Below, piece after piece: positions 6,833-38,867 of a stretch of DNA of 64,000 nt. The DNA is taken from the NCBI RefSeq assembly GCF_003790525.1, contig NZ_CP033635.1, one strand, 5' to 3'. Below the pieces are notes generated by a model. That model saw only the letters and a list, made by a program, of their open reading frames with translations, made no database searches and was not told the DNA's origin. The stretch's first letter is position 1. Each line of letters starts with the position of its first letter. The DNA is from Escherichia coli (GTDB lineage: Bacteria > Pseudomonadota > Gammaproteobacteria > Enterobacterales > Enterobacteriaceae). The position numbers and the translations under genes were made by a program.

Positions 6833-9117
6833 TATGTCCACTCCATTACTGTTGAGAATCCCGGCCACTCATCAGCGACCGGATACGTGAATTTTTTCCC
6901 GTCATAATTTACGGTCGCGCCACGCGCCAGCGCCTCAAGCTCCCATCGCTGCGGCCTGATACCGTTCTGAGCAAGGTCAACGCGGATACGGGTAATTTGC
7001 GTTCGTTCCGACCGGGTCAGTCTGGCCGATGGCGCTATTTCATGTGGTTTTAACGGGCTTCCGTTTCTCTGCTGACGATTTGGTGTTCTCAGTTCGTGTT
7101 TTAATGCACCTCTGAGCGCCCTCACGACCTCTGGCTCATTCCATTCGATAACACCGTCATCAACCAGATTAAGCACGGCTGCGGCATGTTCATAAGGTGT
7201 GGGAGCCGGTAACGAAGTATCACTGCCGGTGAGCTTTCCACAGTTATTGACAGGACTCCGAGGCGCGGCGATGCCGCTTTTTAAAGTCAAAGGCTCAACG
7301 ACCGGAACTTTCGGCACAATGCGCCAGTCCGTCGTTCTGGTGATATGAATATGACGCGCGCCGAGATGCGGCGCGTAAATACCGACCACTCTCTCGACTT
7401 CTTCCTCGTACTCGTTAACGTCACTCGACGGGCTACGGGCAACCCTGACAGTCTGACAATCGCGCGGGACATTTGCCCCACCCTGCGCGCTGATATACAA
7501 CGCAAAATCACCACTGTCTGCGGCAGCGCGAGCAGCCTCGACGCGTTCGTCAAACTCATCAGCAATACTGACGCCGCGAGGTAATTTGCGTAGTTCACGG
7601 TAAGCCCCCATTGTCGGTAGGCCAACCGTTTTAAATTGCGGAATGCGCCACGTTGACGCCCATGCGGTAACAGCCGCGGCAGTGTCTTTCAGCGGCCTGC
7701 CGGTATCGTTATCGAGCTGACCATCCAGTGCATAGCCGTCGATGTTTTTTGAAATGTATTTCGCGATATACCCCGCAGCACCGCCCCGATTAAGGTGTTT
7801 TGCCTGAAAACGGTTTCGCGCGGCTCCTCTTTCGTCGCCATCCTCTTTGAGCGCATAGCGACGCATGATTTCGATAATCTGGTTACGCTGGCGCGAATTA
7901 CAAAAAAGCATCATATGCCAGTGCGGCGTTCCGTCGTGGTGTGGCTCGACGACACGCAAACCGTAGACCTGTAAATCATTATCCTTGAATGCCGTGCGCA
8001 TCAGGCTCCAGATACGGCAGAGATAACGCTGCGCATCCTTTGGATTAAATGCCTCATCGTTCCAGCCGTGATTAAGCTGCACGGTTTTACTTTCGCCTTT
8101 TCCTACCTGACGTGTCGGGTGATACTTTGACGGCGCGGTCAGCGTGATAAACATCCCCACATCACCCTCTGCAGCGGCGTAACGCTCAATACCGGCAATG
8201 GTGTTCATCAGCTCCATCCGGCGAATTTCAGGATTAGAAATACTGCCCATCACCTTACTGATAAGGTCGATGCGCTCGCCGGTTTCCCTGTTTTCAAGGT
8301 CACACGATTTAAGAAATTCCAGATTTGCCTGGCGGCGCGCACGCACATCACGAATGGCATGTTTACTGGCATAAGGTGAACGGTCTTTATTGACCTCCCC
8401 GACAGCAATCAGTAACGCCTCATGCCAGCGCATACGCTGGCCTTTAAGCTGTCTAATCCACCACTCATCGTTAAACAGGCGGGCAATGGCAGAATATGCC
8501 TGCCTCGTGGTCATCTGCCCTTTACGGTATTTTCTCCAGTACAGCGGGGAAATATTGAAAGCACGTGCAGCGCCAGCAACATGACCATACAGGTGAGCCT
8601 GCGCCTCATCCGTAAACAGCGATTCTTTTTCGCCATGGGCATCCACCCAGGCATCGCAGAGTTCCTCATACATCATGAAAAGCTGCGATGAGATACGGGC
8701 GGCAAACTTTTTCAGCTCCTTGTCATTCATTCCCGGCAGGCGCGCATAGTGGTCACGCTCTGCCAGAAACAGCAACGACGCGTCGGTGTTCATTTCATGG
8801 CGCTGATTCACACGCTCAATGCGCGGCCATAAACGACGCTGAAAAGTGGATGTGAGGAAATAAAACCCGTGCACCGGGCTTTTATTGCGCCGGATGTAGT
8901 CATAGCGTGAAGTAAACAGCGAGCGCAAAAAGTAAGGCAGGCGGTTAATCGTGGATAAAACACCTTGCACCTGACGCATCTCATCACGTGTAAGGGGTCT
9001 TTCGCGCCCGACGGCCTCGCGTGGCGCGTTCCATGCATAAGCACCGGTAAACATCTTACCGGTGCCTGCGGCAAATGCTGACGGAGGGACAAAACGCCCG
9101 GAGGCTTTAACGGCCAT
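6832..9117 (-). CDS. A: Replication initiation endonuclease, P2 gpA-like (761 aa from ATG 9117; the ORF is open to 9159)
   Basis: HUH-type motif EPHHDGTPHWHMMLF and tyrosine motif AGYIAKYISKN are present. The N-terminus MAVKASGRFVPPSAF and the length match my memory of P2 A. Confidence 0.9.
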   Translation of the reverse strand: MAVKASGRFVPPSAFAAGTGKMFTGAYAWNAPREAVGRERPLTRDEMRQVQGVLSTINRLPYFLRSLFTSRYDYIRRNKSPVHGFYFLTSTFQRRLWPRIERVNQRHEMNTDASLLFLAERDHYARLPGMNDKELKKFAARISSQLFMMYEELCDAWVDAHGEKESLFTDEAQAHLYGHVAGAARAFNISPLYWRKYRKGQMTTRQAYSAIARLFNDEWWIRQLKGQRMRWHEALLIAVGEVNKDRSPYASKHAIRDVRARRQANLEFLKSCDLENRETGERIDLISKVMGSISNPEIRRMELMNTIAGIERYAAAEGDVGMFITLTAPSKYHPTRQVGKGESKTVQLNHGWNDEAFNPKDAQRYLCRIWSLMRTAFKDNDLQVYGLRVVEPHHDGTPHWHMMLFCNSRQRNQIIEIMRRYALKEDGDERGAARNRFQAKHLNRGGAAGYIAKYISKNIDGYALDGQLDNDTGRPLKDTAAAVTAWASTWRIPQFKTVGLPTMGAYRELRKLPRGVSIADEFDERVEAARAAADSGDFALYISAQGGANVPRDCQTVRVARSPSSDVNEYEEEVERVVGIYAPHLGARHIHITRTTDWRIVPKVPVVEPLTLKSGIAAPRSPVNNCGKLTGSDTSLPAPTPYEHAAAVLNLVDDGVIEWNEPEVVRALRGALKHELRTPNRQQRNGSPLKPHEIAPSARLTRSERTQITRIRVDLAQNGIRPQRWELEALARGATVNYDGKKFTYPVADEWPGFSTVMEWT

Positions 9118-9382
9118 ATGAGCCAAAAGCCTCTGAACAACGCCTGCTGAGTTGCTCAACCTGCGCGTTTAAATCAGCAAAAGACTTTGCGCTTCCGGTC
9201 AGAATATCGTGATGCATCAGGCCGGAAACGAGCTGGCTTAATTTCGGGTAATAACCAACCACCGCCAGCCATTCCTGACCGGCGTTTTTACCGCTTTCAG
9301 CTCTCTTTTTCTCGTGGAGAATAAACTGAAAGCTGTCACTGGTAACGACATAACGTTCGCCAATTTCAATACGAATACTCAT
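9107..9382 (-). CDS. Small P2-type early-operon protein, unknown function (91 aa)
   Basis: ATGA overlap with the upstream gene at 9379-9382. Position is equivalent to the P2 orf80-83 group. Confidence 0.6.
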   Translation of the reverse strand: MSIRIEIGERYVVTSDSFQFILHEKKRAESGKNAGQEWLAVVGYYPKLSQLVSGLMHHDILTGSAKSFADLNAQVEQLSRRCSEAFGSYGR

Positions 9383-9603
9383 GCCGTTCTCCGGTAATGT
9401 TTGTTTTTTGCTTCAAAGACTGACTGACAGGAAACACAACGCGTGGCTGACGGATAAGCCGCACGACGGGCAGCAGGTATTGGCGCGTCACACTCTTCGC
9501 AAACCAGCGCAGAAGCACCGCAATGTTTTACCCTTGCCGCGTTAATCTGGCGCTCCAGTAATTCAGCCTGTTGTTCCTGAATAAAATCTACGTTGTCCGG
9601 CAT
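9379..9603 (-). CDS. TraR/DksA-type C4 zinc-finger protein (74 aa)
   Basis: CEECDAPIP...RCVSCQ forms a CxxC-N17-CxxC motif. TAATG coupling at 9601-9605. Confidence 0.75.
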   Translation of the reverse strand: MPDNVDFIQEQQAELLERQINAARVKHCGASALVCEECDAPIPAARRAAYPSATRCVSCQSVFEAKNKHYRRTA

Positions 9604-9905
9604 TACCAGTTCCTTTTGTCGTTAAGGTTTTTAAATTCATCAGCGCAATAGCTGGCGATTTCTGTCGTTAATTTCGTCAGTTCATCCACGGAGGAGATTT
9701 GCTTGTGAAACACAGCGCGTTTAACAAGTAAATTGACCACATCAGACAGGAGGTTTAATTCGTTCTGATAAATCGCGATAACAGACTCAGTTATTTCGCG
9801 TTTTTCTTTATCAAGACCAAGTTGAATAAGAGACAAATCGCCATTTTTCATAACGGCGATTTTTAGGGCGTTATTCAGTAATACAACTGAACGAGAACAG
9901 GACAT
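9603..9905 (-). CDS. Hypothetical early-operon protein (100 aa)
   Basis: ATG 9905 overlaps the upstream TGA (TGATG). No recognisable motif. Confidence 0.5.
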   Translation of the reverse strand: MSCSRSVVLLNNALKIAVMKNGDLSLIQLGLDKEKREITESVIAIYQNELNLLSDVVNLLVKRAVFHKQISSVDELTKLTTEIASYCADEFKNLNDKRNW

Positions 9906-10129
9906 CAAAGCACCTCCCCGCGAGACAATCCGATATTGTGAAATTTTTCCGACTCCTGACTGAGCAGCTCGACTATCTCCACGCGGGATAACTCCGCCTT
10001 TGTGATGTGGCGAATCATGGCGTCAAGATGAGAAGAAAAGCGCGTCGCTGCGTCGGCCTGTGCTTCGGTTCTGGCCTGTTGCAGCAGTAATGCGTATTTA
10101 CCGCACTGATTTTCAGAAACTGTATGCAT
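9905..10129 (-). CDS. Hypothetical early-operon protein (74 aa)
   Basis: Compact ORF in the operon between B and A. No recognisable motif. Confidence 0.5.
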
Positions 10130-10192
10130 GACTTTCTCCAGGCAAAAAGAAGCCCCGCACGATTAAGTGCGTTAAAAACTCTGGTTAATTAC

Positions 10193-10693
10193 TTAATGCA
10201 GATATTGCTCTGGTTTTACCGACGTCAGAATTGTCGGTGCATACTCAAACAGGCTGAATAATTCACGTAATGCACGGAATAAAGCATCACGCCAGTAACA
10301 TGATTCTTCATTAATTCGCCAGTATGGCTGGTTGAATTCTTTTTCAGTCAGTCGTGCGTGCATAAATAAAGTGCGACGCTGACTGACTGTTAAAAAACTA
10401 ATATATGCATACTCACTTGCGCCAACCTGACGGCGTTTTGAGAATGCGCCACGCAATTCATCAATTGCACAAACCAGTCGTTCACGTTCGACGTCGTTCA
10501 TTTCTTCAAAACGCATCGTTGCGTGACGCTGTTTTAACTGTGCATGAAAGCAAACCGTTAGCCGTTCGCGCTCCATCATCTGATTATAATAATCACATGT
10601 ATCCTGCCAGCGAGGGACGGCAAGATGCTTGCCAATTATCCGGCGCATAGCTGCTGGCTGTTTTTCAACGAGATTAAGCGTCATCACTGTCAT
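10193..10693 (-). CDS. B: Replication protein B (helicase-loader-like), P2 gpB-like, 166 aa
   Basis: Same length and position as P2 B. The sequence MTVMTLNLVEKQPAAMRRIIGKHLAVPRWQD matches my memory of gpB. Confidence 0.8.
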   Translation of the reverse strand: MTVMTLNLVEKQPAAMRRIIGKHLAVPRWQDTCDYYNQMMERERLTVCFHAQLKQRHATMRFEEMNDVERERLVCAIDELRGAFSKRRQVGASEYAYISFLTVSQRRTLFMHARLTEKEFNQPYWRINEESCYWRDALFRALRELFSLFEYAPTILTSVKPEQYLH

Positions 10694-11650: not shown

Positions 11651-12631
11651 ATGTCAATTAAGAAGCTCGATGATGGACGCTATGAAGTGGACATTAGACC
11701 TCGCGGTCGCGACGGAAAACGCATCCGCAGGAAATTTGAAAGAAAAGCTGAGGCTGTAGCATTTGAGCGATACACAATCGCCTACGCCAGCCAGAAAGAA
11801 TGGGCAGGTCAGCGAGCAGATCGCAGAACTTTGAGTGAGTTGCTGAACATCTGGTGGAAATATCACGGGCAAAACCACGAGCATGGAACAAAAGAGTTTA
11901 ATCATCTGCTCAAAACCATCAGCGGCATAGGTGATATACCAGTGAGCCGGATGAGCAAAAGAGCTTTGATGGATTATCGTTCCATGCGACTACGTGATGG
12001 TATCAGTGCCGCAACGATAAACCGTGACATGTACCGATTATCCGGCATGTTCACAAAATTAATTCAATTGGATGAATTTTCCGGGCAACACCCAATTCAC
12101 GGACTGCCGCCACTGGCGGAGGCCAACCCTGAAATGACGTTCCTGGAAAAAGCAGAAATCGAAAAACTGTTAAATGTTTTGGATGGTGATGACTTACTTG
12201 TCGCACTTTTATGTCTGAGCACTGGAGGAAGATGGACGGAAGTTGCCACGCTAAAACCAGCACAGATTACAAATTGCAGGGTTACCTTCCTGAAAACCAA
12301 AAACGGTAAAAAGCGAACCGTGCCGATTTCTGAGGAACTGGAGAAAAAAGTTAAAGAGGAGGCCAGCGCTAAATTATTCAAAGTTGATTATGAGAAGTTT
12401 TGCGGGATTTTACGCAGAGTGAAGCCAGATATACCACCCAATCAGGCAACCCACATCCTGCGGCATACATTCGCAAGCCATTTCATGATGAATGGGGGCA
12501 ATATAATCGCACTGCAACAGATTCTGGGACATGCGAGCATTCAGCAGACGATGGCCTATGCGCACCTTGCGCCTGACTACCTGCAAAATGCCGTCGCGCT
12601 GAATCCTCTAAAAGGCGGAGTGACGTTATAA
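11651..12631 (+). CDS. int: Tyrosine integrase, P2 Int-like (326 aa from ATG 11651)
   Basis: The N-terminus MSIKKLDDGRYEVDIRPRGRDGKRIRRKF parallels P2 Int. The catalytic HILRHTFASHF ... LGHASIQQTMAYAHL (R-H-R-Y) is present. Confidence 0.9.
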   Translation: MSIKKLDDGRYEVDIRPRGRDGKRIRRKFERKAEAVAFERYTIAYASQKEWAGQRADRRTLSELLNIWWKYHGQNHEHGTKEFNHLLKTISGIGDIPVSRMSKRALMDYRSMRLRDGISAATINRDMYRLSGMFTKLIQLDEFSGQHPIHGLPPLAEANPEMTFLEKAEIEKLLNVLDGDDLLVALLCLSTGGRWTEVATLKPAQITNCRVTFLKTKNGKKRTVPISEELEKKVKEEASAKLFKVDYEKFCGILRRVKPDIPPNQATHILRHTFASHFMMNGGNIIALQQILGHASIQQTMAYAHLAPDYLQNAVALNPLKGGVTL

Positions 12632-12644
12632 ATTTCCCTTCTGA

Positions 12645-12664
12645 GTGTCCACATAGTGTCCACA
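12645..12664 (-). repeat. Two direct copies of the Int arm-type site (TGTGGACAC on the minus strand), 11 bp apart
   Basis: GTGTCCACA occurs at 12645-12653 and 12656-12664, immediately after the int stop. The P2 Int arm consensus is TGTGGACA as I recall it. Confidence 0.65.
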
Positions 12665-12749
12665 CTCTCAGAACTTTGTAGCCCTTCCAGTCCCTTATAG
12701 GTTTTCTTAAGTTACTGTTTTCTTACGGAAACCGATGTAAGTGATTGAT

Positions 12750-12776
12750 AAAAAAAACCCCCACATCATGTGGGGG
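12750..12776 (-). terminator. cpxP / CpxQ Rho-independent terminator
   Basis: On the minus strand, CCCCCACAT pairs with ATGTGGGGG (12776-12758), followed by T8 (12757-12750). Confidence 0.85.
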
Positions 12777-12812
12777 AAGACAGGGATGGTGTCTATGGCA
12801 AGGAAAACAGGG
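12750..12812 (-). ncRNA. cpxQ: CpxQ, the 3'UTR-derived sRNA of cpxP (5' end approximate)
   Basis: This is the segment between the cpxP stop (12817-12819) and its terminator. CpxQ is known to be processed from exactly this 3'UTR. Confidence 0.55.
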
Positions 12813-12816
12813 TTTA

Positions 12817-13317
12817 CTACTGGGAACGTGAGTTGCTACTACTCAATAGCTTCAACGATGAACTTTTTTGCCATTGCGTCACGTCGCGCAACTGCTCCAT
12901 TCGTTGTTGATGTTTCTCGTTTAAAACCGCTTGCTGCTCCGGCGTTAACAGGCGATACATTTGGTTGCGGACTTTTGCCATCTCAACCTGACGAGCAATT
13001 TGCTCATTCGCCATTTTTTCTGCCTGTGCGCGCACAGCGTTTTCATCAAAATTTTCTGCGGTGACAAGGCGATGCATTGTCTCCAGTTCGCTAACATTAA
13101 CAGGAGGCTGTTCGTGCCGGGCCTGTTGCATAAGATCTCGCATCTGCTGACGCTGATGTTCGGTTAAACTTATGCCGTCGAACATATGGCTCTGCGTACT
13201 GCGCTGCGTAAGTTCTTCACCCGGATGCCAGTTATCGCCTGAACCGACTTCAGCAGCGTGGCTTAATGAACTGACTGCCAGCGTTGAGGCCATGACGGCA
13301 GCGGTAACTATGCGCAT
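12817..13317 (-). CDS. cpxP: Periplasmic Cpx pathway inhibitor/adaptor CpxP
   Basis: [21 protein letters not shown] signal peptide and LTEHQRQQM motifs. Divergent from cpxRA. Confidence 0.95.
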
Positions 13318-13396
13318 CATTTGCTCCCAAAATCTTTCTGTCGCGATTCAACGATAGAGAGTTTACGATTCAGGCTGCAAACATGCGTCAGGGGGT

Positions 13397-13411
13397 GTAA
13401 AACAACGTAAA
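13397..13411. promoter_or_regulatory. CpxR box in the cpxP-cpxR divergent control region
   Basis: GTAAA-ACAAC-GTAAA is an exact match to the GTAAA(N5)GTAAA consensus. Confidence 0.8.
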
Positions 13412-13466
13412 GTCATGGATTAGCGACGTCTGATGACGTAATTTCTGCCTCGGAGGTATTTAAACA

Positions 13467-14165
13467 ATGAATAAAATCCTGTTAGTTGATGATGACCGAG
13501 AGCTGACTTCCCTATTAAAGGAGCTGCTCGAGATGGAAGGCTTCAACGTGATTGTTGCCCACGATGGGGAACAGGCGCTTGATCTTCTGGACGACAGCAT
13601 TGATTTACTTTTGCTTGATGTAATGATGCCGAAGAAAAATGGTATCGACACATTAAAAGCACTTCGCCAGACACACCAGACGCCTGTCATTATGTTGACG
13701 GCGCGCGGCAGTGAACTTGATCGCGTTCTCGGCCTTGAGCTGGGCGCAGATGACTATCTCCCGAAACCGTTTAATGATCGTGAGCTGGTGGCACGTATTC
13801 GCGCGATCCTGCGCCGTTCGCACTGGAGCGAGCAACAGCAAAACAACGACAACGGTTCACCGACACTGGAAGTTGATGCCTTAGTGCTGAATCCAGGCCG
13901 TCAGGAAGCCAGCTTCGACGGGCAAACGCTGGAGTTAACCGGCACTGAGTTTACCCTGCTCTATTTGCTGGCACAGCATCTGGGTCAGGTGGTTTCCCGT
14001 GAGCATTTAAGCCAGGAAGTGCTGGGCAAACGCCTGACGCCTTTCGACCGCGCTATTGATATGCACATTTCCAACCTGCGTCGTAAACTGCCGGATCGTA
14101 AAGATGGTCATCCGTGGTTTAAAACCTTGCGTGGTCGCGGCTATCTGATGGTTTCTGCTTCATGA
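13467..14165 (+). CDS. cpxR: Envelope-stress response regulator CpxR (OmpR family)
   Basis: Receiver domain (LLVDDD...LLLDVMMP) plus winged-helix domain. ATGA overlap with cpxA. Confidence 0.97.
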   Translation: MNKILLVDDDRELTSLLKELLEMEGFNVIVAHDGEQALDLLDDSIDLLLLDVMMPKKNGIDTLKALRQTHQTPVIMLTARGSELDRVLGLELGADDYLPKPFNDRELVARIRAILRRSHWSEQQQNNDNGSPTLEVDALVLNPGRQEASFDGQTLELTGTEFTLLYLLAQHLGQVVSREHLSQEVLGKRLTPFDRAIDMHISNLRRKLPDRKDGHPWFKTLRGRGYLMVSAS

Positions 14166-15535
14166 TAGGCAGCTTAACCGCGCGCATCTTCGCCATCTTC
14201 TGGCTGACGCTGGCGCTGGTGTTGATGTTGGTTTTGATGTTACCCAAGCTCGATTCACGCCAGATGACCGAGCTTCTGGATAGCGAACAGCGTCAGGGTC
14301 TGATGATTGAGCAGCATGTCGAAGCGGAGCTGGCGAACGATCCGCCCAACGATTTAATGTGGTGGCGGCGTCTGTTCCGGGCGATTGATAAGTGGGCACC
14401 GCCAGGACAGCGTTTGTTATTGGTGACCACCGAAGGCCGCGTGATCGGCGCTGAACGCAGCGAAATGCAGATCATTCGTAACTTTATTGGTCAGGCCGAT
14501 AACGCCGATCATCCGCAGAAGAAAAAGTATGGCCGCGTGGAACTGGTCGGTCCGTTCTCCGTGCGTGATGGCGAAGATAATTACCAACTTTATCTGATTC
14601 GTCCGGCCAGCAGTTCTCAATCCGATTTCATTAACTTACTGTTTGACCGCCCGCTATTACTGCTGATTGTCACCATGTTGGTCAGTACGCCGCTGCTGTT
14701 GTGGTTGGCCTGGAGTCTGGCAAAACCGGCGCGTAAGCTGAAAAACGCTGCCGATGAAGTTGCCCAGGGAAACTTACGCCAGCACCCGGAACTTGAAGCG
14801 GGGCCACAGGAATTCCTTGCCGCTGGTGCCAGTTTTAACCAGATGGTCACCGCGCTGGAGCGCATGATGACCTCTCAGCAGCGTCTGCTTTCTGATATCT
14901 CTCACGAGCTGCGCACCCCGCTGACGCGTCTGCAACTGGGTACGGCGTTACTGCGCCGTCGTAGCGGTGAAAGCAAAGAACTGGAGCGTATTGAAACCGA
15001 AGCGCAACGTCTGGACAGCATGATTAACGACCTGTTGGTGATGTCACGTAATCAGCAGAAAAACGCACTGGTTAGCGAGACCATCAAAGCCAATCAGTTG
15101 TGGAGTGAAGTGCTGGATAACGCGGCGTTCGAAGCCGAGCAAATGGGCAAGTCGTTGACAGTTAACTTCCCGCCTGGGCCGTGGCCGCTGTACGGCAATC
15201 CGAACGCCCTGGAAAGTGCGCTGGAAAACATTGTTCGTAATGCCCTGCGTTATTCCCATACGAAGATTGAAGTGGGCTTTGCGGTAGATAAAGACGGTAT
15301 CACCATTACGGTGGACGACGATGGTCCTGGTGTTAGCCCGGAAGATCGCGAACAGATTTTCCGTCCGTTCTATCGTACCGATGAAGCACGCGATCGTGAA
15401 TCTGGCGGTACAGGTTTGGGGCTGGCGATTGTTGAAACCGCCATCCAGCAGCACCGTGGCTGGGTTAAAGCGGAAGACAGTCCGCTTGGCGGTTTACGGC
15501 TGGTGATTTGGTTGCCGCTGTATAAGCGGAGTTAA
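14162..15535 (+). CDS. cpxA: Envelope-stress sensor histidine kinase CpxA
   Basis: H-box SHELRTPLT, N/G boxes and two TM segments. Confidence 0.97.
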   Translation: MIGSLTARIFAIFWLTLALVLMLVLMLPKLDSRQMTELLDSEQRQGLMIEQHVEAELANDPPNDLMWWRRLFRAIDKWAPPGQRLLLVTTEGRVIGAERSEMQIIRNFIGQADNADHPQKKKYGRVELVGPFSVRDGEDNYQLYLIRPASSSQSDFINLLFDRPLLLLIVTMLVSTPLLLWLAWSLAKPARKLKNAADEVAQGNLRQHPELEAGPQEFLAAGASFNQMVTALERMMTSQQRLLSDISHELRTPLTRLQLGTALLRRRSGESKELERIETEAQRLDSMINDLLVMSRNQQKNALVSETIKANQLWSEVLDNAAFEAEQMGKSLTVNFPPGPWPLYGNPNALESALENIVRNALRYSHTKIEVGFAVDKDGITITVDDDGPGVSPEDREQIFRPFYRTDEARDRESGGTGLGLAIVETAIQQHRGWVKAEDSPLGGLRLVIWLPLYKRS

Positions 15536-15544
15536 ACTCCGCAT

Positions 15545-15630
15545 TGTAGGCAGGATAAGGCGTTTACGCCGCATCCGGCATTTGAGCAGGATGCCTGATG
15601 CGACGCTGATAGCGTCTTATCAGGCCTACA
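15545..15630. repeat. REP/BIME element (two inverted REPs)
   Basis: GCAGGATAAGGCGTTTACGCCGCATCCGGCA and GCCTGATGCGACGCT...CTTATCAGGCCTACA. Confidence 0.85.
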
Positions 15631-15639
15631 CTCCGGGGG

Positions 15640-16314
15640 TTATTTTCCCCACAACCGGCGGGAAAAATCTTCGATCTTGCCGCTCAGTCGGCGCTTTTGC
15701 ATCGTCCGCGTCCAGCTTTTCGATAACCCGGCGGCGGAGAGTAAACGGTGATACTGATCGTCATCAAACGGCATATGCCATGCGATGGCGGCAGCCTCCT
15801 GCACGGTCACATCACTGACACGGGAAACCAACTCCAGTGGCGCATCAGCAGATACCAACCCTGGTGCAATTACGCTATACAACCACCCCACTTTACCCGT
15901 GTTTTGCATCAACTGCGCTATGTCGCTGATATCAAAATGGTAATTGAGTTTATAGCAAGGCGAGCGCGGCTGGCTGACCTGAATTAATGCCTCTCCCCAG
16001 CGGAAAATATCGCCCATATAAACATTACTTTCCGTCAGACCGTCGGTTGAGAGATTTTCACCAAACGCAGGCGCAACAAACAACTCCGCCTGTTCCGGAA
16101 ATTCCCGCGCCCAGTAGAGATAGTGCTCACGAGGATAATGACAAAGCGCTCTGTCTGGCCCGCCGTGAACCATTTTCTCCGCCTGCTCGTCACCTTCCAG
16201 CCCCAGCTCCGTCAGCATCAACTCACCATCAACCTGGATTTTGGCAATTGCGCTGGGTTTGCCTTCGGGATAAGCCTGAATCTTGCCTGTGTATACATCA
16301 ACCGGATATCGCAT
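15640..16314 (-). CDS. yiiM: MOSC-domain protein YiiM (224 aa)
   Basis: MRYPVDVYTGKIQAYPEGKPSAIAK... with host synteny. Confidence 0.9.
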   Translation of the reverse strand: MRYPVDVYTGKIQAYPEGKPSAIAKIQVDGELMLTELGLEGDEQAEKMVHGGPDRALCHYPREHYLYWAREFPEQAELFVAPAFGENLSTDGLTESNVYMGDIFRWGEALIQVSQPRSPCYKLNYHFDISDIAQLMQNTGKVGWLYSVIAPGLVSADAPLELVSRVSDVTVQEAAAIAWHMPFDDDQYHRLLSAAGLSKSWTRTMQKRRLSGKIEDFSRRLWGK

Positions 16315-16462
16315 CTGTTCCCTCTCCACGAGAAATTTCCCCATTAGACCATATTTATTTTATGTCAGGCGTGCTGTTTTCGCGGTATGTATCCAGGCAG
16401 GAGCTCAATAGCAAACCGGACGAACGTTAGTTCATCCGGCTGTGGGGATTAAGGAAGCAGGT

Positions 16463-17446
16463 TTATTTCACCGTACCTAAAATTTCGATTTTCGCCGCTC
16501 TGGCTTTGACTTTACGTGACCAGATAGAGGTAAGAATTGGCACCAGAATCGAAGTCACAATGACCGCCGTCGCTACCAGCGAAGTTGCTGCCGGAGCCAT
16601 CGGTTTAAACGCAGGCACCATTTCTGCAATCAGCACAGGTGTCGCTACCGCGGCCCCTGCGGAACTGGAAGCGGCAATTCCGGCAGTGCCATCGCCACCG
16701 CCAATCAATTTATCAGCGATAATCAACGGAATACCGGTCACGATAATTACTGCCACACCCAACAGGATCCCCAGCAAACCTGTCTGGGCAATTACAGTCA
16801 AATCAATGGTATTGCCCAGCGCGAAGGCAAAGAATGGAATCAGCGTCTGCACCGCTTTGCTGAAAAATTCTCGTAATTCAGGGTCAAGGTTCCCAAGGGC
16901 AAAGCCCACCAGGAACGGTAATACTGCGCCGACGAAAACATGCGGTTCAAACGAGGCAATCCCGGCAGTGCCCAGAATAATCATCGTCATGAGCGGCCCG
17001 GACTCCAATGACATCAACACAAATGCCCCAGCTTCTTCTTTTGTGCCGTACTGCTGCATGATGGAAGCGTAAAGTCCGCCGTTGGTCATATCCATCGCCG
17101 CCACCAGCGCCAGCGTTGAAAGTCCGGCAAAGAATCCAACTTCAACACCATGTTCCGGAATAATGCGCGAGGCAATCGCCGCAACCACCCACGCGACGGC
17201 AATTTTTGTTACCACCAGCGTGCCGGATTTACGCAATACCGTTCCCGTCGCGCTTAATTTTATTGACGCCCCCATGCAAAAAAACCACACCGCCAGAATG
17301 GGCACCGTACCGGTAATCATCCCGTTGGTGAATGATCCAAAATATTTCCCCGCCCCCGGCGAGAAGGTGTGGCACAGTGCGCCAAGGAATAGCGGGACGA
17401 GCATCATCCCCCCCGGGATTTTCTCAATCGAGCGTTTTATCTGCAT
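16463..17446 (-). CDS. kdgT: 2-keto-3-deoxygluconate permease KdgT (327 aa)
   Basis: [23 protein letters not shown]..., polytopic membrane protein, host synteny. Confidence 0.9.
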
Positions 17447-32327: not shown

Positions 32328-33383
32328 TTAACGCAAGCTATTATAGTCATCGACCATTTCGTTGTACTCGCGTAACGCTCGTGGAAATGAGTCGTCGACC
32401 ATCCAGCTTGTGTTTGCATCCTGAAGTTGCTCTTTATCCCAGTCAGAATACGGAACTTTATCTCTGACGCGGCGAACATATTTTTTAGCCTCGAGTTGAT
32501 ACTGGTCTGCCGAATTAATGAACGAGAAATTCATACCGCCTTTATCCGCTTCTTTGGCCTGCGCCACCAGCGTTTCCAGTTCAGACACTTTCTTCATTGC
32601 CGCATCAACATCAAACTTCTCTTGCGATATCAGGTTATTAATTTGTTTCGCTGAAATCATGACTGCCAGAGAATAGTAGTGGAATGTTTTCCCTTCTCTT
32701 TCTTCAATATTTTTCAGTTCCGCAAGCTGACGCTTATCATTAATTTCCTGGATCGCCGCATGATAAGATTCGGCTACAGGTTCAAAGGCTTCCAGATTTT
32801 TTAAGAATGTCTGGTGCAGCGTTTTCCCTTTCGCAAACGCATCGTCTTTATAATTTTCCTGGGTGTAATATTTATCCATTTCGTTAATGGTATTACCCAA
32901 CGCCACGGCAGCATCGATATAACTCACCGCTACGCCATCAATAGGTTGCAGCGCAGGCGTTAACGCCACAGCACTTTTTACGCCTTTTTCACACTCAGCG
33001 AGGCTGGATTCACTAAAGCCGTAGATGCCATAAACAGTACTCTCTTTACCGGTAGGCCCCTGTTTAAAATCTTTCAGCCAGTCAGCATAACGCGCCAGAC
33101 TGCGCTGTACCGGGATCTGTAACTTGTTGTAGCACTTGATATAGACATCCATTTTTTCGTCGAAAACCGCTTGTTCATCGACCACCGGTTGGGCAGGAGT
33201 TTCAGGTTTAACTTCTGCTTTTGCAACGGGAGCTTCAGCAGGTTTCGCTTCAGGAGCTGGTGCGGCAGGTTGACTATTGGCAGGCGGGGGCGTTTCTGTT
33301 TCGGCTTTTTTATCATCACAACCCGTGAGACCGAGGGCCATGATGGCGACTATAATAGCGGAAGATAATAAATTCCTTTTCAT
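32328..33383 (-). CDS. yiiG: Lipoprotein YiiG (DUF3829-like)
   Basis: Lipobox LGLTGC, a Pro/Ala/Glu-rich linker, 351 aa. Confidence 0.85.
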   Translation of the reverse strand: MKRNLLSSAIIVAIMALGLTGCDDKKAETETPPPANSQPAAPAPEAKPAEAPVAKAEVKPETPAQPVVDEQAVFDEKMDVYIKCYNKLQIPVQRSLARYADWLKDFKQGPTGKESTVYGIYGFSESSLAECEKGVKSAVALTPALQPIDGVAVSYIDAAVALGNTINEMDKYYTQENYKDDAFAKGKTLHQTFLKNLEAFEPVAESYHAAIQEINDKRQLAELKNIEEREGKTFHYYSLAVMISAKQINNLISQEKFDVDAAMKKVSELETLVAQAKEADKGGMNFSFINSADQYQLEAKKYVRRVRDKVPYSDWDKEQLQDANTSWMVDDSFPRALREYNEMVDDYNSLR

Positions 33384-33577
33384 TTAATTGCCTTATAAAT
33401 ATTTAGATAAGAGAGATAATATTTTAAATGAAAAAATGATCCGTCACTATACACATTTTGCTTATAAACAAACCGAAATCATTCACACTCCGAATAATTC
33501 CTGCGACTTAAAATATAAATCGCAGGAAGCGATTTTAATTACCCGCTCTACCACTGGCGCAGGATATAAACTCTCAC

Positions 33578-35884
33578 CTACATTCCATAACGTTCAGAAA
33601 TAGCAGCATGCTTCTCTTCATTCGCCCCGGCTTCTTTGGCAAGACGCCACCAGCACAACGGATGTTCCCAGTCAGCGGTCAATTCGTGCAAGGTCTTATC
33701 GATATCACCTTTAGAAACTGAACGCGGCGCGCTGATAACAAAGTAGAACGCGGGCAGCGGCTGTGCATCTTCTCCCTGCTGGCTGTCCGTTAACGTATAG
33801 TCCTCGTTACTGTTGCTCCAGTAGTACCAGTTTCGTTCACGGAGCGCCTCACGGAAGGCATTAAACTGTTCTTCACCAGGCATGACACCTTCGCAGAACC
33901 AGGACTCGCCGTACTCAGTCGGGATAATGGTTTGCAGGCAGGCATAAAGTGGCGTGAAATTCTTCCGTTCTTCCTCATCCTCTGGTTGGGTGTTCAATAT
34001 TTCCGCATCGAATACCACAACTTCATCAACATGTTGCGGATAATCGGTCCGGTAAGTTGGCTCAATGATCCTTGCTGTTACCGGCCCAATACGTTGAGCA
34101 TAGTAATAGCGGTATTCATAATTTTCCCGGAAGCGAATGTTTAGCAGTCCCCATTTTTCGTCGATAAAACCTTCACCTTCCGTAAGTTCGATTTCCAGTT
34201 CAGCTGCAATAGCACGAACCAAATCCCATTGTTGCAGGATGCTGGCGGTCGCCATGATATCCCACTGGATATTACGAATATCTTCTTCACGGCTAATCAT
34301 CAGTTGCTGCAATTGTTGTAAATAATCCAGCTGTCGATCCCAGGCTTCCTGTTTTTGTGCTGCCCAGGAGCACATGCGATAAACGCCGATCCACTCACGC
34401 CCTTTTTCGTTTTGCAGCAACTGGTGCCCAATCGACTCGAGTTCACTCCAGTCTTCCTGTTGGTTGATCACTCGCGCACGGAACCACAAGGCCATATGTA
34501 GCAGCCCCGCCTGTTCATACTGCTTCGCCAGGTGCTCAATGGTTTGCAGATCGTCACGGTGGAGCAATAAATCCAACAGATCGAAGCAAAGACCATTATC
34601 TTCCTGGATGTGGCTTTCGACGTAGCGTTGCAGAAGTTCAATCGACTCATCAATCGCATTACAGGCGTTTAACGCATTGACCAGTTTGCCCAGCAATTCC
34701 GCATCATCTGGCGCGTTCAGGTAAGCGCGGCGGAATGTTTCGACGTCTTTTTCTGGATCTGGCTGCGTTTCTTCATCGCTATTTTCAGGTACTTCTACAA
34801 CCGGACGAGCAAGCAACTCTGCTTCTTTGGCGGCGATTTTTTCACTCAGTTCGAGAAACTCACGATCAACCCCCAGTAACACGCGTAATTTTGGCATGTG
34901 TCGCTGGGCCAGTTTCATCGCTATTTTGGCAACCCAGACGGATTCACGCTCCAGCGCCAGGGTAATTTGCAGTTTCGCCAGATCAACCACTTTGCGGTGC
35001 GCTCCGGCCTGCGAGCGGTGCTCCAGCATTTTTTGGATGATGCGCGCCAGTTGCCAGTTGTTTCTTTGTGGATGACGGGGAAGTAACACAGTAATGATTT
35101 TCAGCCATGACCCCCATGAATGGGGAGTCAGATCTGACCAACGCGGTAATTCCTCCCAGACTTCTTCGTCCTGCCCGCATAACGCCATGATGTACAGTTT
35201 TTTGAGGTGATTACTAATGCGGTCGCGGCCCCAGTAATCATTGGCTTCTGTCAGCTCATCAATCAGTATGCGTGCTTCATCATAACGCTGAAGTTCAATC
35301 AGAATATCGGCACGAGTATAAAGTAATGCATCAATATCATCTTCCCCGGCTGCTTTAACTGCGTCGATTTGTCGATCCAGATAAGCCAGTGCCTCCTCTA
35401 TTCTTTTGGAATCTATCAGTGCACTGGCATATTCAGTGGACAAACACTGAAAACAGCTCCAGGTCGGATCAATCCGCGCGATGGTTTCTTCACATACCGC
35501 CATACGTTCATTCGCCCAGCCAGGTGCATCAATATTTTCGTAGCAGGCGGATAAATCCTGGGTAACGCAGATAGATTGTGGGCAATCTTTTGTCTCTTCC
35601 CGGTGCGCTTTTTCAAACAGCGCTACCACGTCTGGCAGCACCTTTTCACCTTCTTCATAGTTAGTCAGGCGATGACGCATTTCCCAGTGACCAATAAATA
35701 TTTCCAGCCACGGATTTTTTGCCACCTGGGTAAGTGCTTTTACTTCAGGTAACAGCGAATCGCACTTTTCCATTTGCAGGTGCATAACGCCTTCCGAATA
35801 ATCATCGATAAGTTGCGGAATATACTCCTGCCCGGCATCGCGTAACTCCTTAGTATATTTGTGATACCACTCCCATATATCCAT
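33578..35884 (-). CDS. 768-aa helical-repeat protein of unknown function, partner of the Hsp90 paralog
   Basis: Long uninterrupted ORF whose ATG lies 1 nt after the upstream TAA (35882-35888). The sequence is Leu/Glu/Trp-rich and alpha-helical (TPR-like impression), with a Cys cluster CPQSIC...CYE...CEE...CFQC. Confidence 0.6.
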   Translation of the reverse strand: MDIWEWYHKYTKELRDAGQEYIPQLIDDYSEGVMHLQMEKCDSLLPEVKALTQVAKNPWLEIFIGHWEMRHRLTNYEEGEKVLPDVVALFEKAHREETKDCPQSICVTQDLSACYENIDAPGWANERMAVCEETIARIDPTWSCFQCLSTEYASALIDSKRIEEALAYLDRQIDAVKAAGEDDIDALLYTRADILIELQRYDEARILIDELTEANDYWGRDRISNHLKKLYIMALCGQDEEVWEELPRWSDLTPHSWGSWLKIITVLLPRHPQRNNWQLARIIQKMLEHRSQAGAHRKVVDLAKLQITLALERESVWVAKIAMKLAQRHMPKLRVLLGVDREFLELSEKIAAKEAELLARPVVEVPENSDEETQPDPEKDVETFRRAYLNAPDDAELLGKLVNALNACNAIDESIELLQRYVESHIQEDNGLCFDLLDLLLHRDDLQTIEHLAKQYEQAGLLHMALWFRARVINQQEDWSELESIGHQLLQNEKGREWIGVYRMCSWAAQKQEAWDRQLDYLQQLQQLMISREEDIRNIQWDIMATASILQQWDLVRAIAAELEIELTEGEGFIDEKWGLLNIRFRENYEYRYYYAQRIGPVTARIIEPTYRTDYPQHVDEVVVFDAEILNTQPEDEEERKNFTPLYACLQTIIPTEYGESWFCEGVMPGEEQFNAFREALRERNWYYWSNSNEDYTLTDSQQGEDAQPLPAFYFVISAPRSVSKGDIDKTLHELTADWEHPLCWWRLAKEAGANEEKHAAISERYGM

Positions 35885-35885
35885 T

Positions 35886-37721
35886 TTATTTTCCTTGATT
35901 AATTAAGACAGGAATAACCTGAGTAAAATCTTCCAGTGCCTGGTGTAAATCCCACTGCTGTTCTTTATTACCGCTGGAGCACAAAATCACTTTCAGCGAT
36001 TTTAATAAGCGTAATGCCGCTGCGGGCTGTTGCTGGTGTTGTAATGCCGTCACCAGTTGCATGATGCAAGGGTTATTAAGGTTGATGTATAAACTTGAGG
36101 TTTTCGTTTTTTGGATTTGTGAAGTAAATTGCCGCGCCAGCATTAACGCTGCGGTGCTGATGCGTTTATCTGCGTCATCCTGTTCGAGAATTTGTTTTAA
36201 TTCTGCTTCGCGGTCTGGCGTAACCACTAACGGTAAAACGGCGGGTTCGAAGCGGGAGATAATTAATTGCTCGCCATCGCAGAGATGCTCTTCCAGATAA
36301 GCTACCTGCTCTTCGGGTAATTCCGCCAGGCTGAACAACTGCTCATTACCTGTTTGCGTACCGACTTCGACAATCCGGCAGTGATATAACAGCGCCCAGC
36401 GACGTAAAAATGGCACGACGGCATAGCGATCGCCACGGGCAACGGGCCGTTGCAGAATGTGGAACAACATCTCTTCAAAACCGCCGTCGCGGCTTAACAG
36501 AATATGAATGCTGTTATTAACGCGTAAATCCTTCGCCAGCAACGCCCCTTTTGACGTTGGCACCTGCAAGCGATCTTTGAGCAAATCAAACAGACGGTCA
36601 TCACATAATGCCGCACCGAGCAACGCTTCGTTGTGGCGCATTAATACACGCCGCCAGATTTCTGGCTGATTTTGTGCGAGATCGGACAAACCAGAAATCA
36701 GCGCCTCTTTTAACGCCTCCTGCACCGCAACCCAGGTTTCGTCCCGCTGGAGATCTTCCCGGCTCGCCGTAGGCGTTAGTTTCGATGACTCAATCACGCC
36801 GCCAATAAATCCGGCCCAGGGAGGTAACAACTCACGCGCTTCATCATCCAGTAACATACCGCGCAAAAACAGCGACAGGTTGCGGTTATCGCTGGTGCCG
36901 TAGGTTGCGCCATCCTGAATCCATAAAATCCCAACCGCGTCGCTCATCCCCACGGGCACCACCGGAATGGTGCAAATCGGTTCGAAGGAGGATTCAAACT
37001 GGGCGGCAAAGGCGAGATTTTTACGCTGTACCAGCGCGCGGTGCATGGTTACGCCTTCGGGGGCAACTTCACGCCACGGTGGTTGAAGTTTATTTACCGG
37101 CTCGCTGGCATCGCCGACATAGACCGGTTCGTGCAGCAATATACAGTAGCGGGAAAGAACGCGGTTCAGCAAATTGTTACTCGCCAGATGGCTGTACTCT
37201 TCTTTGAGCGTCAGAATCACCTGCGTACCCGTTTCCGAGGACTGATGCGGCGTAACGGTATATTTTTGCCCGTCGGTAGAGTGGTATTTCCAGCTCTGAT
37301 CCGGCGTTTGCCAGGATGTGGTCAACACCGTGACCTCTTTCGCCAACACAAAGGCCGACAAAAAACCGAGGCCGAACATACCAATTAAACCGGTGTTGTC
37401 ATCCTGCTGGCGCAACATTCGGGTATAACCCACGCCTACTGTCGCCAGGAAGCCGTGAATTTCACTTTCTGTCAGTCCAGCGCCAGTATCGCTAATAGTG
37501 ATAGTGGACTTCGCCACGTCTGCCACCACACGAATCGCGTTATCCTTTGGTGCATCGGGCTGCTCAATCCTGCGGCGAACGATCGCATCATGGCCGTTCT
37601 GCACCAGCTCGCGCACGGCAACCACGGGAGTGGAGTAAAGATGCTTACTGAGCACCTCAATTAAGCCGTTTAAATTAACTTCTGTAGAATATGAACTACC
37701 AGGTAACTGTAATGTACTCAT
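35886..37721 (-). CDS. Hsp90/HtpG-family GHKL ATPase paralog (611 aa)
   Basis: Bergerat-fold boxes are present: RELVQNGHDAI (N box, cf. Hsp90 ELISNxSDAL), ISDTGAGLT (G1) and GMFGLGFLSAF (G2, cf. GQFGVGFYSAF). Confidence 0.75.
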   Translation of the reverse strand: MSTLQLPGSSYSTEVNLNGLIEVLSKHLYSTPVVAVRELVQNGHDAIVRRRIEQPDAPKDNAIRVVADVAKSTITISDTGAGLTESEIHGFLATVGVGYTRMLRQQDDNTGLIGMFGLGFLSAFVLAKEVTVLTTSWQTPDQSWKYHSTDGQKYTVTPHQSSETGTQVILTLKEEYSHLASNNLLNRVLSRYCILLHEPVYVGDASEPVNKLQPPWREVAPEGVTMHRALVQRKNLAFAAQFESSFEPICTIPVVPVGMSDAVGILWIQDGATYGTSDNRNLSLFLRGMLLDDEARELLPPWAGFIGGVIESSKLTPTASREDLQRDETWVAVQEALKEALISGLSDLAQNQPEIWRRVLMRHNEALLGAALCDDRLFDLLKDRLQVPTSKGALLAKDLRVNNSIHILLSRDGGFEEMLFHILQRPVARGDRYAVVPFLRRWALLYHCRIVEVGTQTGNEQLFSLAELPEEQVAYLEEHLCDGEQLIISRFEPAVLPLVVTPDREAELKQILEQDDADKRISTAALMLARQFTSQIQKTKTSSLYINLNNPCIMQLVTALQHQQQPAAALRLLKSLKVILCSSGNKEQQWDLHQALEDFTQVIPVLINQGK

Positions 37722-37988
37722 TTTTCAATACTCATAATCCATCACCTACTATTGAAAATACATCGCTGTTTTTACAACCGGTGCAAGGTTTGTTATTTCA
37801 TTCACTCATCGGAAACATTTATTTATTGACGCGATGATTAAAACAAAATGTCTTATATAAATAATGATTAATTCTTAAAGGATTAATGCGACTGGAGTAT
37901 ATCGATATAACCCGGAGTTAACGAGATAATTTCTTGTGGTGAAATTATTATTTGAATGCTGAATAATATATTGAGGATTATTTAATAG

Positions 37989-38024
37989 AAAAATAAAACC
38001 GCAATCCAGAATCAGAATTGCGGT
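37989..38024 (-). terminator. fdhD Rho-independent terminator
   Basis: On the minus strand, ACCGCAAT pairs with ATTGCGGT (38024-37998), followed by TTTATTTTT. Confidence 0.8.
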
Positions 38025-38030
38025 ATTTCT

Positions 38031-38867
38031 TTAATTATGAATCAAACGCTGCGGATGGGTATAAACCGTTGCCCGACCCGGTTTACAAAAACCTACCAGT
38101 GTCAGATTACAGCGCTCAGCCACTTCTACAGCAAGCGTGGTCGCGGCAGACACCGCAAACAAAATCTCTACGCCGCACATCGCTGACTTTTGCACCATTT
38201 CATAACTGGCACGGCTGGAAACCAGCACCGCACCTTGCTGCCAGCTTTCCCCTTCTTGTGACCGGCGGCCTAACAGTTTGTCCAGCGCCACATGGCGACC
38301 CACGTCTTCATGCCCGCCGACCAGTTCGCCAGATGGCAACATCCAGGCGGCGGCGTGAGTACAACCGGTCAGTTGCCCCACTGGCTGAAAATCATTGAGA
38401 TGACGTAATGCATCATCCAGTTTGTTGAGATCAAACGTCTGGGTGAACGGTAGCGGCTGCACCGGTTTTCCGATGTCATTAAGTTGCTCCACGCCGCACA
38501 CGCCACATCCCGTACGTCCCGCCAGTGCCCGGCGACGCTCCTTCAACCCCATAAAGCGGCGGCTGGAAAGCTCAATTTGCACTTCCAGACCATTACAGGA
38601 AGGAACGACATCCATACCGAAGATATCGCGCGGACTTTCGATAATCCCCTCGGAAAGCGAAAAACCGAGCGCAAAGTACTCAAGGTCTTTGGGTGACGCC
38701 ATCATCACTACATGCGAAATGCCGTTGTAGACCAGCGCAACGGGAACCTCTTCCGCCACCTCATCTAACCGTGGGTGTTGTAAATCATCACGCCGCCATA
38801 ACTCAATTTGACGAACACCTGTGACACTTGTCACATTTTCGATTTCTTTTTGCTGTGTTTTTTTCAC
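38031..38867 (-). CDS. fdhD: Formate dehydrogenase sulfurtransferase/accessory protein FdhD
   Basis: [13 protein letters not shown]...GRTGCGVCG motif. Divergent from fdoG. Confidence 0.95.

Follow-up and report, generated by a model that had tools for sequence, protein, structure and literature searches.

Does an operon that joins an Hsp90-like ATPase gene to a gene for a large helical-repeat protein, and that lies between yiiG and fdhD in some strains of Escherichia coli, serve in conflicts with phages, or do its two products work together as a chaperone and its partner? We evaluated this for the copy in contig NZ_CP033635.1 of E. coli (RefSeq assembly GCF_003790525.1), within a stretch of 64,000 nucleotides, here called the window, to which all coordinates refer. 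A preliminary description of this DNA, made from its sequence alone, had considered both possibilities. Our results indicate that the locus is a self-contained, vertically inherited two-gene operon, and that its products, a divergent Hsp90 paralog and a tetratricopeptide repeat (TPR) protein that we call the partner, are strictly coupled genetically across the species surveyed. We see about an even chance that a dedicated Hsp90-like ATPase works here with a TPR adaptor or client. The two genes, taken from the list of open reading frames (ORFs) of the window, are:

35886..37721, minus strand: the Hsp90 paralog, an ORF of 611 amino acids
33578..35884, minus strand: the partner, an ORF of 768 amino acids

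The ATPase gene is the upstream gene, and a single nucleotide separates its stop codon (35888-35886) from the ATG of the partner gene (35884-35882). This TAA-ATG spacing had been noted in the preliminary description, whose reading of the pair as an Hsp90-family paralog and a helical-repeat protein in one operon is supported by the analyses below.

The Hsp90 paralog contains the ATP-binding motifs RELVQNGHDAIVRR, ISDTGAGLTESE and GLIGMFGLGFLSAFVLA, which are invariant across its family; the three motifs read earlier from the 611-residue ORF (ELVQNGHDAI, DTGAGLT and GMFGLGFLSAF) are indeed all present. The protein can be divided as follows:

37107..37685, minus strand: GHKL ATPase N-domain, about residues 13-205, from Pfam HATPase_c_3 and alignments to TRAP1 and HtpG
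36648..37106, minus strand: middle-domain segment, about residues 206-358, with the catalytic-loop R321 in PTASREDLQ, from Pfam HSP90
35886..36647, minus strand: C-terminal about 250 residues plus the stop codon, covered by the NCBIfam PRK14083 profile only

Pfam models matched at 38.4 bits for HATPase_c_3 (cutoff 25) and at 33.5 bits for HSP90 (cutoff 24.4; residues 274-353). In a search of PDB sequences, TRAP1 and E. coli HtpG aligned over the N-domain and the large middle domain (E 5e-30), and a profile of 22 orthologs matched E. coli HtpG over residues 17-358 (E 5e-43). The catalytic E38, the Mg-ligand N42, the adenine-contact D78 and R321 are invariant in these 22 orthologs, as are D78-T-G-A-G and the lid G114-M-F-G-L-G-F (114-120). 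R321 is the equivalent of yeast R380, with PTASREDLQ aligning to NLSRELLQ of TRAP1 and HtpG. The best NCBIfam match was to PRK14083, 'HSP90 family protein' (NF010683), over residues 13-571; the paralog nevertheless falls below both curated cutoffs, with 288.5 bits against an equivalog cutoff of 455 for PRK14083, and 197.5 against 371 for HtpG (NF003555). Its C-terminal half is highly conserved within the family (RYAVVPFLRR, GTxxGNxxLF). At the level of sequence, domain identity and the conservation of catalytic residues thus show a non-canonical Hsp90-family ATPase, predicted to be catalytically intact and distinct from the housekeeping HtpG; one source labels it 'Hsp90xo'.

The partner is a protein of near-constant length in its family (about 760-775 amino acids), contains tandem TPR-type repeats and has Pfam matches only to TPR families. 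Its three parts are:

35411..35710, minus strand: most conserved block, residues 59-158, a putative metal or redox site, from the family alignment
34199..35884, minus strand: helical TPR-type superhelix, residues 1-562
33578..34150, minus strand: C-terminal α/β domain, residues 579-768, plus the stop codon

An AlphaFold2 model calculated with the family alignment (mean predicted local distance difference test score of 92.8) is helical over residues 1-562 and has a separate α/β domain at about residues 579-768. Together with the invariance of C101, C106, C144 and C147, this agrees with the earlier view of the 768-residue product as a helical protein with an N-terminal cysteine cluster and a distinct C-terminal domain. 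In structure comparisons the superhelix resembles MalT domain III, AimR and NprR, a class of peptide- or ligand-binding receptors, and the likeness to the STAND (MalT domain III) and RRNPP (AimR) proteins is at fold level only, with 8-10% identity. Within the conserved block, W59, H66, C101-P-Q-S-x-C106, D110, D119, E133, C144-x-x-C147 and E151 are invariant in 100 partner homologs, and so are several residues of the C-terminal domain. The block has no Pfam match, and its motif CPQS[IV]C[VA]TQ is essentially specific to the family, a relative of the partner being encoded in 365 of the 381 genome matches. The conservation pattern makes a metal or redox site possible; in the model, C101/C106 and C144/C147 start two different helices, and there may be two sites rather than one.

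The C-terminal domain starts with a small β-barrel, continues with a ferredoxin/ACT-like half and has a conserved acidic loop (PEDEEER); no match to it was found among PDB sequences, Pfam or viral sequences. Its profile retrieved 416 clusters from 1.84 billion representatives, essentially all of them C-terminal in proteins of ~760 amino acids. Judged from these matches, the domain is exclusive to the partner family and the architecture of the family is fixed.

The pair was found in 254 of 5,426 complete E. coli genomes (4.7%), as a single chromosomal copy that is always at the yiiG-fdhD site and with both ORFs intact in all 254 (coverage of at least 96%). There are two allele groups, one of at least 99% identity in 77 genomes and the other of about 92% in 163, and the carriers include an ST131 strain. 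For other species we surveyed one genome per GTDB species, with gene context taken from the 80 loci retrieved. Relatives of the partner are encoded in 365 GTDB species genomes, and in every one of the 80 loci the gene immediately upstream, in the same orientation, is the Hsp90 paralog. A check of the gene neighbourhood, proposed in the preliminary description, therefore shows co-inheritance of the two genes in 254/254 E. coli genomes and in 80/80 loci from other species. Identity across the latter is 54-99% for the Hsp90 paralog and 37-91% for the partner, the ATPase being the better conserved, and the loci compared have no further gene in common across genera. Distant partner homologs (P0101 and P0104, about 30% identity) also keep the upstream Hsp90 gene.

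The genomic position of the pair is stable. In E. ruysiae, E. whittamii, other Escherichia and Superficieibacter it occupies the same fdhD/yiiG site, and in a Salmonella Infantis contig it is near fdhD. Both flanks are syntenic in 21 Xanthomonas and 23 Stenotrophomonas species genomes, and in the 14 genera examined the pair has housekeeping genes on its flanks (ABC transporters, two-component systems, BamB, IscS, Der, LapB, CstA, Mqo); this synteny and these neighbours indicate a core-like inheritance. In Pseudomonas aeruginosa the pair is located among core genes, between a LysR regulator and braG-braC plus flgB, and from its neighbourhood and the PAO1 numbering we take it to be PA1068/PA1069. 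PA1069 has been described as apparently operonic with an Hsp90 gene (PMC4053335), and its protein was found in P. aeruginosa proteomes (PMC4053335, PMC5541441, PMC13411936). The preliminary description had held that either presence in K-12 or universal conservation as core genes would speak against an accessory module: the pair is conserved as core genes in Xanthomonas, Stenotrophomonas and P. aeruginosa, but it is absent from K-12-type genomes.

Among E. coli alleles and other Escherichia species, the ratio of nonsynonymous to synonymous substitution rates (dN/dS) lies between 0.02 and 0.05 in the ATPase gene and between 0.06 and 0.12 in the partner gene, showing that both genes are under strong purifying selection. 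These low ratios, together with the presence of PA1069 in proteomes, indicate that both genes are functional. The dS of the pair (0.18-0.68) is comparable to that of the flanking fdhD (0.14-0.24). Because of this similarity, and because the site is shared across the genus, we favour an old vertical inheritance followed by loss in most E. coli. Of the two terms used in the preliminary description, accessory or differentially lost, the second is thus the better one, with the site also occupied in other Escherichia and in Superficieibacter.

Comparison with a K-12-type genome containing an empty site (L002) allowed us to define the limits of the segment. The features of the locus are:

32328..33383, minus strand: yiiG, one flank of the pair
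33517..33535, minus strand: terminator-like hairpin, 42 nt 3' of the partner gene, homolog of the K-12 fdhD terminator, from a hairpin scan and the empty-site alignment
33534..33541, no strand: left copy of the 8-bp direct repeat TTTAATTA, at the yiiG-side boundary, from a repeat scan
37998..38024, minus strand: terminator-like hairpin with a 10-bp stem and a T-run, just 3' of fdhD and inside the extra segment, from a hairpin scan
38030..38037, no strand: right copy of TTTAATTA, at the fdhD-side boundary and overlapping the fdhD stop codon, from the empty-site alignment and repeat scan
38031..38867, minus strand: fdhD, the other flank of the pair

The empty site has the order frvR-yiiG-fdhD without the pair, as had been stated for K-12, and its yiiG-fdhD spacer of 152 bp, terminator hairpin included, aligns to window positions 33384-33541, 3' of the 768-residue gene. 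Relative to it, the extra segment comprises about 33542-38029 (4.5 kb), and the empty-site junction keeps one copy of TTTAATTA. The locus was probably lost by deletion between these 8-bp repeats. We searched the locus for transposon-like repeats and found none, nor any mobile-element scar beyond the 8-bp microhomology, and no tRNA-type or integrase neighbours were seen in the annotated flanks. G+C content is 45-56% in the gene bodies and 31-35% in both non-coding flanks, in line with the AT-rich flanks and host-like genes reported earlier. Conversely, the hairpin at 37998-38024, formerly taken for the intact fdhD terminator at the edge of the segment, is missing from the empty site and shares no homology with the terminator of K-12, the homolog of which is the hairpin at 33517-33535. 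The operon now ends at that homolog, and fdhD has here a different hairpin; its product ends in ...RLIHN, one codon longer than the ...RLSN of K-12-type genomes.

Some variation was also seen in the neighbouring genes. The length of yiiG is 1,056 nt here and 1,044 nt in the ST131 strain, and at the megablast level the gene was matched over at least 80% of its length in 3,875 of 5,386 genomes, so that this neighbour is itself variable. Beyond fdhD, the alpha subunit of formate dehydrogenase-O appears as two ORFs (39061..39648 and 39697..42111, plus strand) and in RefSeq as one coding sequence of 3,051 nt. The corresponding gene, fdoG, has an in-frame UGA selenocysteine codon, and the split ORFs at 39061-42111 are consistent with it.

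Two features were distinguished upstream of the operon:

37722..37997, minus strand: AT-rich (about 31% G+C) non-coding region upstream of the Hsp90 paralog, the presumed promoter region
37718..37745, minus strand: strong Shine-Dalgarno AGGTGA followed by a 5-codon mini-ORF, ATG AGT ATT GAA AAA TGA (MSIEK*)

The first region is conserved within Escherichia and not alignable with Salmonella. It has no sigma-70 consensus on the coding strand, and an Rfam search of the upstream region gave no match at E <= 1, which does not support an RNA leader or riboswitch. The annotated ATG of the Hsp90 paralog is not preceded by a Shine-Dalgarno of its own, and shares nucleotides with the TGA of the mini-ORF (ATGA). 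This arrangement is kept in Escherichia and Salmonella while the remaining spacer is not, and in Superficieibacter a 1-nt difference brings the ATG of the mini-ORF in frame with the Hsp90 paralog ORF. The pattern suggests that the mini-ORF is probably translationally coupled to the Hsp90 paralog. As to expression in P. aeruginosa, PA1069 was reported to be induced by high Ca2+ and/or biofilm growth (PMC4053335), and the locus shows a chromatin immunoprecipitation (ChIP) peak of AmrZ with 3.2-fold activation.

We found no genuine phage or plasmid copies of the pair. The sole match in the phage collection is a Salmonella chromosomal contig, and the matches in plasmid records were rejected because they have chromosomal gene content or are part of an 11.8-Mb replicon. 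For instance, a 29-kb 'plasmid' record of Xanthomonas vasicola (L091, pXVH29) carries radA and chromosomal-looking content; at 11989-17408 it shows a stressosome-like cluster after the pair (two STAS proteins, an anti-sigma regulatory factor, ATP-binding proteins and a response regulator) and a helix-turn-helix (HTH) regulator before it. Likewise, the P. aeruginosa 'plasmid' p2014S05-249-1 (L086, 847 kb, typed as conjugative) carries the chromosomal braC-braG plus flgBCD neighbourhood; either the replicon was misassigned or it captured a very large piece of the chromosome. A record titled Nocardiopsis yanglingensis strain A18 (L079) has a locus whose coordinates and identities are indistinguishable from those of Stenotrophomonas maltophilia loci, which suggests that this actinomycete assembly is contaminated.

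Could the operon serve in conflicts or against phages, with a GHKL ATPase acting together with a TPR sensor? We consider this improbable, although the patchy presence of the pair in E. coli, at 4.7% of the complete genomes, and its AT-rich flanks would fit, as would the similarity of the TPR fold to STAND/MalT sensors and to the phage receptor AimR. Searches with PADLOC-DB v2 gave no match for the partner, and for the ATPase only weak partial matches to TmtA (Tiamat) and REase_II (best E 5.7e-06), to which NCBIfam added a weak match to BbrUII-type restriction enzymes. The TmtA matches are confined to some 100 residues of the ATPase fold that both proteins share; indeed, TmtA and the MORC-like GHKL defence ATPases have the Bergerat fold in common with our protein, and the matches are limited to the ATPase core, whereas the ATPase here is of Hsp90 type, with an Hsp90 middle domain and no defence context. 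Effector domains (nuclease, TIR, SIR2, protease or pore-type) were found in neither protein. The enrichment near defence islands proposed in the preliminary description was looked for in the flanks of the 14 genera and is absent: PADLOC and Pfam searches of 142 flanking ORFs showed no consistent defence context, with scattered cross-matches mostly from generic ATPases and from IscS matching DndA/SspA. The fixed syntenic position across genera, the core-gene setting in P. aeruginosa, the chromosomal look of the 'plasmid' records, the absence from phages and the lack of mobile-element scars beyond the microhomology also argue against it, and so does a strongly purifying selection with no sign of diversification. 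The conflict-system reading of the preliminary description is not supported by these results, and the operon is probably not a phage-defence system. That it is instead a decaying, functionless remnant in the course of being lost from E. coli would agree with its being missing from 95% of the complete genomes and having no recognisable promoter; this we find very improbable, given that both ORFs are intact in 254 genomes, dN/dS is as low as 0.03 and 0.1 for the two genes at dS values of 0.2-0.5 between alleles, and the Shine-Dalgarno and coupling arrangement is conserved.

Another explanation reverses the roles of the two proteins. The partner would be the functional unit, a metal or ligand sensor or a scaffold, sensing through its Cys cluster and ACT-like C-terminal domain and binding targets in the TPR groove, and the Hsp90 paralog would be its private maturation or switching factor. 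The two would then be a client with its chaperone, or a signalling switch, and not an adaptor-chaperone machine of general use. This main rival is conceivable but, in our opinion, rather unlikely. The invariant Cys/His cluster might be a cofactor site whose assembly needs help, half of the C-terminal domain is like ACT/ferredoxin-like modules that bind small molecules, and the best TPR matches, MalT domain III, AimR and NprR, are ligand sensors. Its context would also suit a sensor: the Xanthomonas pair adjoins a stressosome-like RsbR/S/T cluster and regulators, P. aeruginosa shows the AmrZ ChIP peak and the increase of PA1069 with Ca2+ and/or biofilm, and fringe homologs of the partner exist without an adjacent Hsp90 gene. 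However, no output domain (DNA-binding, enzymatic or membrane) was found, and the ATPase, at 55-60% identity, is better conserved than the partner, at 37-42%, which is unusual for a factor serving one client.

The reading in which the ATPase and its partner form one specialised chaperone machine, close to the alternative named in the preliminary description, is the one that we favour; it draws on the rigid architecture of the partner and the receptor-like class of its TPR fold, the strict pairing, the evidence that both genes are functional, their core-like inheritance and the Hsp90 identity of the ATPase. In such a machine, the two proteins would interact physically, the TPR partner would act as an adaptor, or co-chaperone, that recognises substrates or signals, the Hsp90-like ATPase would supply ATP-driven clamping or remodelling, and the Cys cluster could be a metal or redox switch. 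Several observations weigh against it. Residues 359-611 of the paralog, alone or as a profile, gave no PDB or Pfam match and resemble no Hsp90 dimerisation domain in sequence; any behaviour as a dimeric clamp would be hypothetical. No MEEVD/EEVD-type tail was found in 20 orthologs, whose C-termini are variable, so that docking cannot take place here in the way known from eukaryotic Hsp90-TPR pairs. Two fringe homologs of the partner, in a metagenomic contig (L089) and in Nonomuraea (L084), have no neighbouring Hsp90 gene, so that the partner can apparently exist without an ATPase encoded in cis; the second also lacks the Cys cluster, with CPAVPAAVEA and AFAG in place of CPQSxCxTQD and CFxC. 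Finally, no sigma-32 motif was found upstream of the E. coli operon and PA1069 goes down about 4-fold on heat shock at 46 C (PMC4957987), and heat-shock regulation was rejected on these grounds; the operon is probably not part of the heat-shock response. The Nonomuraea locus (N. gerenzanensis, 7208-10271) was inspected further: the homolog has 26% identity to the partner, there is no Hsp90 gene within 8 kb, and an HTH_67-family gene ends 20 nt upstream of its start.

A more specific form of the dedicated chaperone machine is a bacterial Hsp90 with an obligate, hard-wired TPR co-chaperone that docks on the paralog's own C-terminal half without MEEVD, and that would bring in clients or respond to a metal or redox signal by way of its invariant Cys/His cluster. 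We regard this form as doubtful; if true, the system would be an independent, convergent Hsp90-TPR partnership, the first in bacteria for a type of association previously thought to be eukaryotic.

How does the pair compare with known chaperones? HtpG and the paralog both have a GHKL N-domain with all the residues for ATP binding and hydrolysis plus the middle-domain arginine loop, and are of similar length (624 and 611 amino acids), but the C-terminal 250 residues of the paralog are not alignable to HtpG and PA1069 of the P. aeruginosa pair is not heat-induced. HtpG, moreover, is not known to be encoded with a specific partner, unlike the paralog here. Chen, Zhong & Monteiro (2006; PMC1525184) described divergent groups B and C of HtpG, as well as genomes holding two copies, and assigned no function. 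Eukaryotic Hsp90-TPR pairs (Hop/Sti1, PP5, CHIP, Cyp40, Tah1) also tie an Hsp90 ATPase to a TPR protein with extra domains; there, however, docking uses the MEEVD peptide, which the ATPase here does not have, and a 3-repeat clamp, whereas the partner has a long MalT/AimR-like superhelix and other domains unrelated to any co-chaperone domain. Any likeness between these pairs and ours would be convergent. CnoX (YbbN) of E. coli, a holdase of 284 amino acids that passes its clients to GroEL and DnaK, is a bacterial precedent for the pairing of TPR proteins and chaperones. It has a Trx-TPR architecture (PMC10490939) and, with its redox-active cysteine motif and its cooperation with chaperones that use ATP, parallels the combination of TPR and cysteines in the partner, for which 'Chaperedoxin' is a weak PDB match. 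Unlike CnoX, which is not operonic with GroEL/DnaK, the partner is tied to an Hsp90 paralog, has 768 amino acids and lacks a thioredoxin fold. As for the STAND proteins, Pfam and NCBIfam detected neither an NB-ARC/NACHT P-loop NTPase nor an HTH output in either protein of the pair.

In textbook accounts, bacterial HtpG does its work with no co-chaperones of its own, and no function has been assigned to its divergent paralogs; the literature that could be searched gave no counter-example. No functional study was found in the literature on Hsp90xo, PA1068/PA1069, HtpG paralogs with TPR proteins, or GHKL proteins in defence, nor any description of the partner family, its domains or an obligate bacterial Hsp90-TPR pairing. 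The Hsp90 fold is already known, and annotations mention the gene pair in passing. Our results thus describe a divergent Hsp90 paralog locked to one large TPR partner across Gamma- and Betaproteobacteria, with carriers that include the pathogens P. aeruginosa, Stenotrophomonas maltophilia, Xanthomonas and a subset of E. coli. Even if the proposed mechanism is wrong, the locus comes off the list of defence candidates and a conserved orphan operon is cleanly defined. If both proteins do form one machine, it would provide a compact and genetically tractable model for the coupling of Hsp90-type ATPases to adaptors, and two or three domains that at present lack a family assignment would gain a function.

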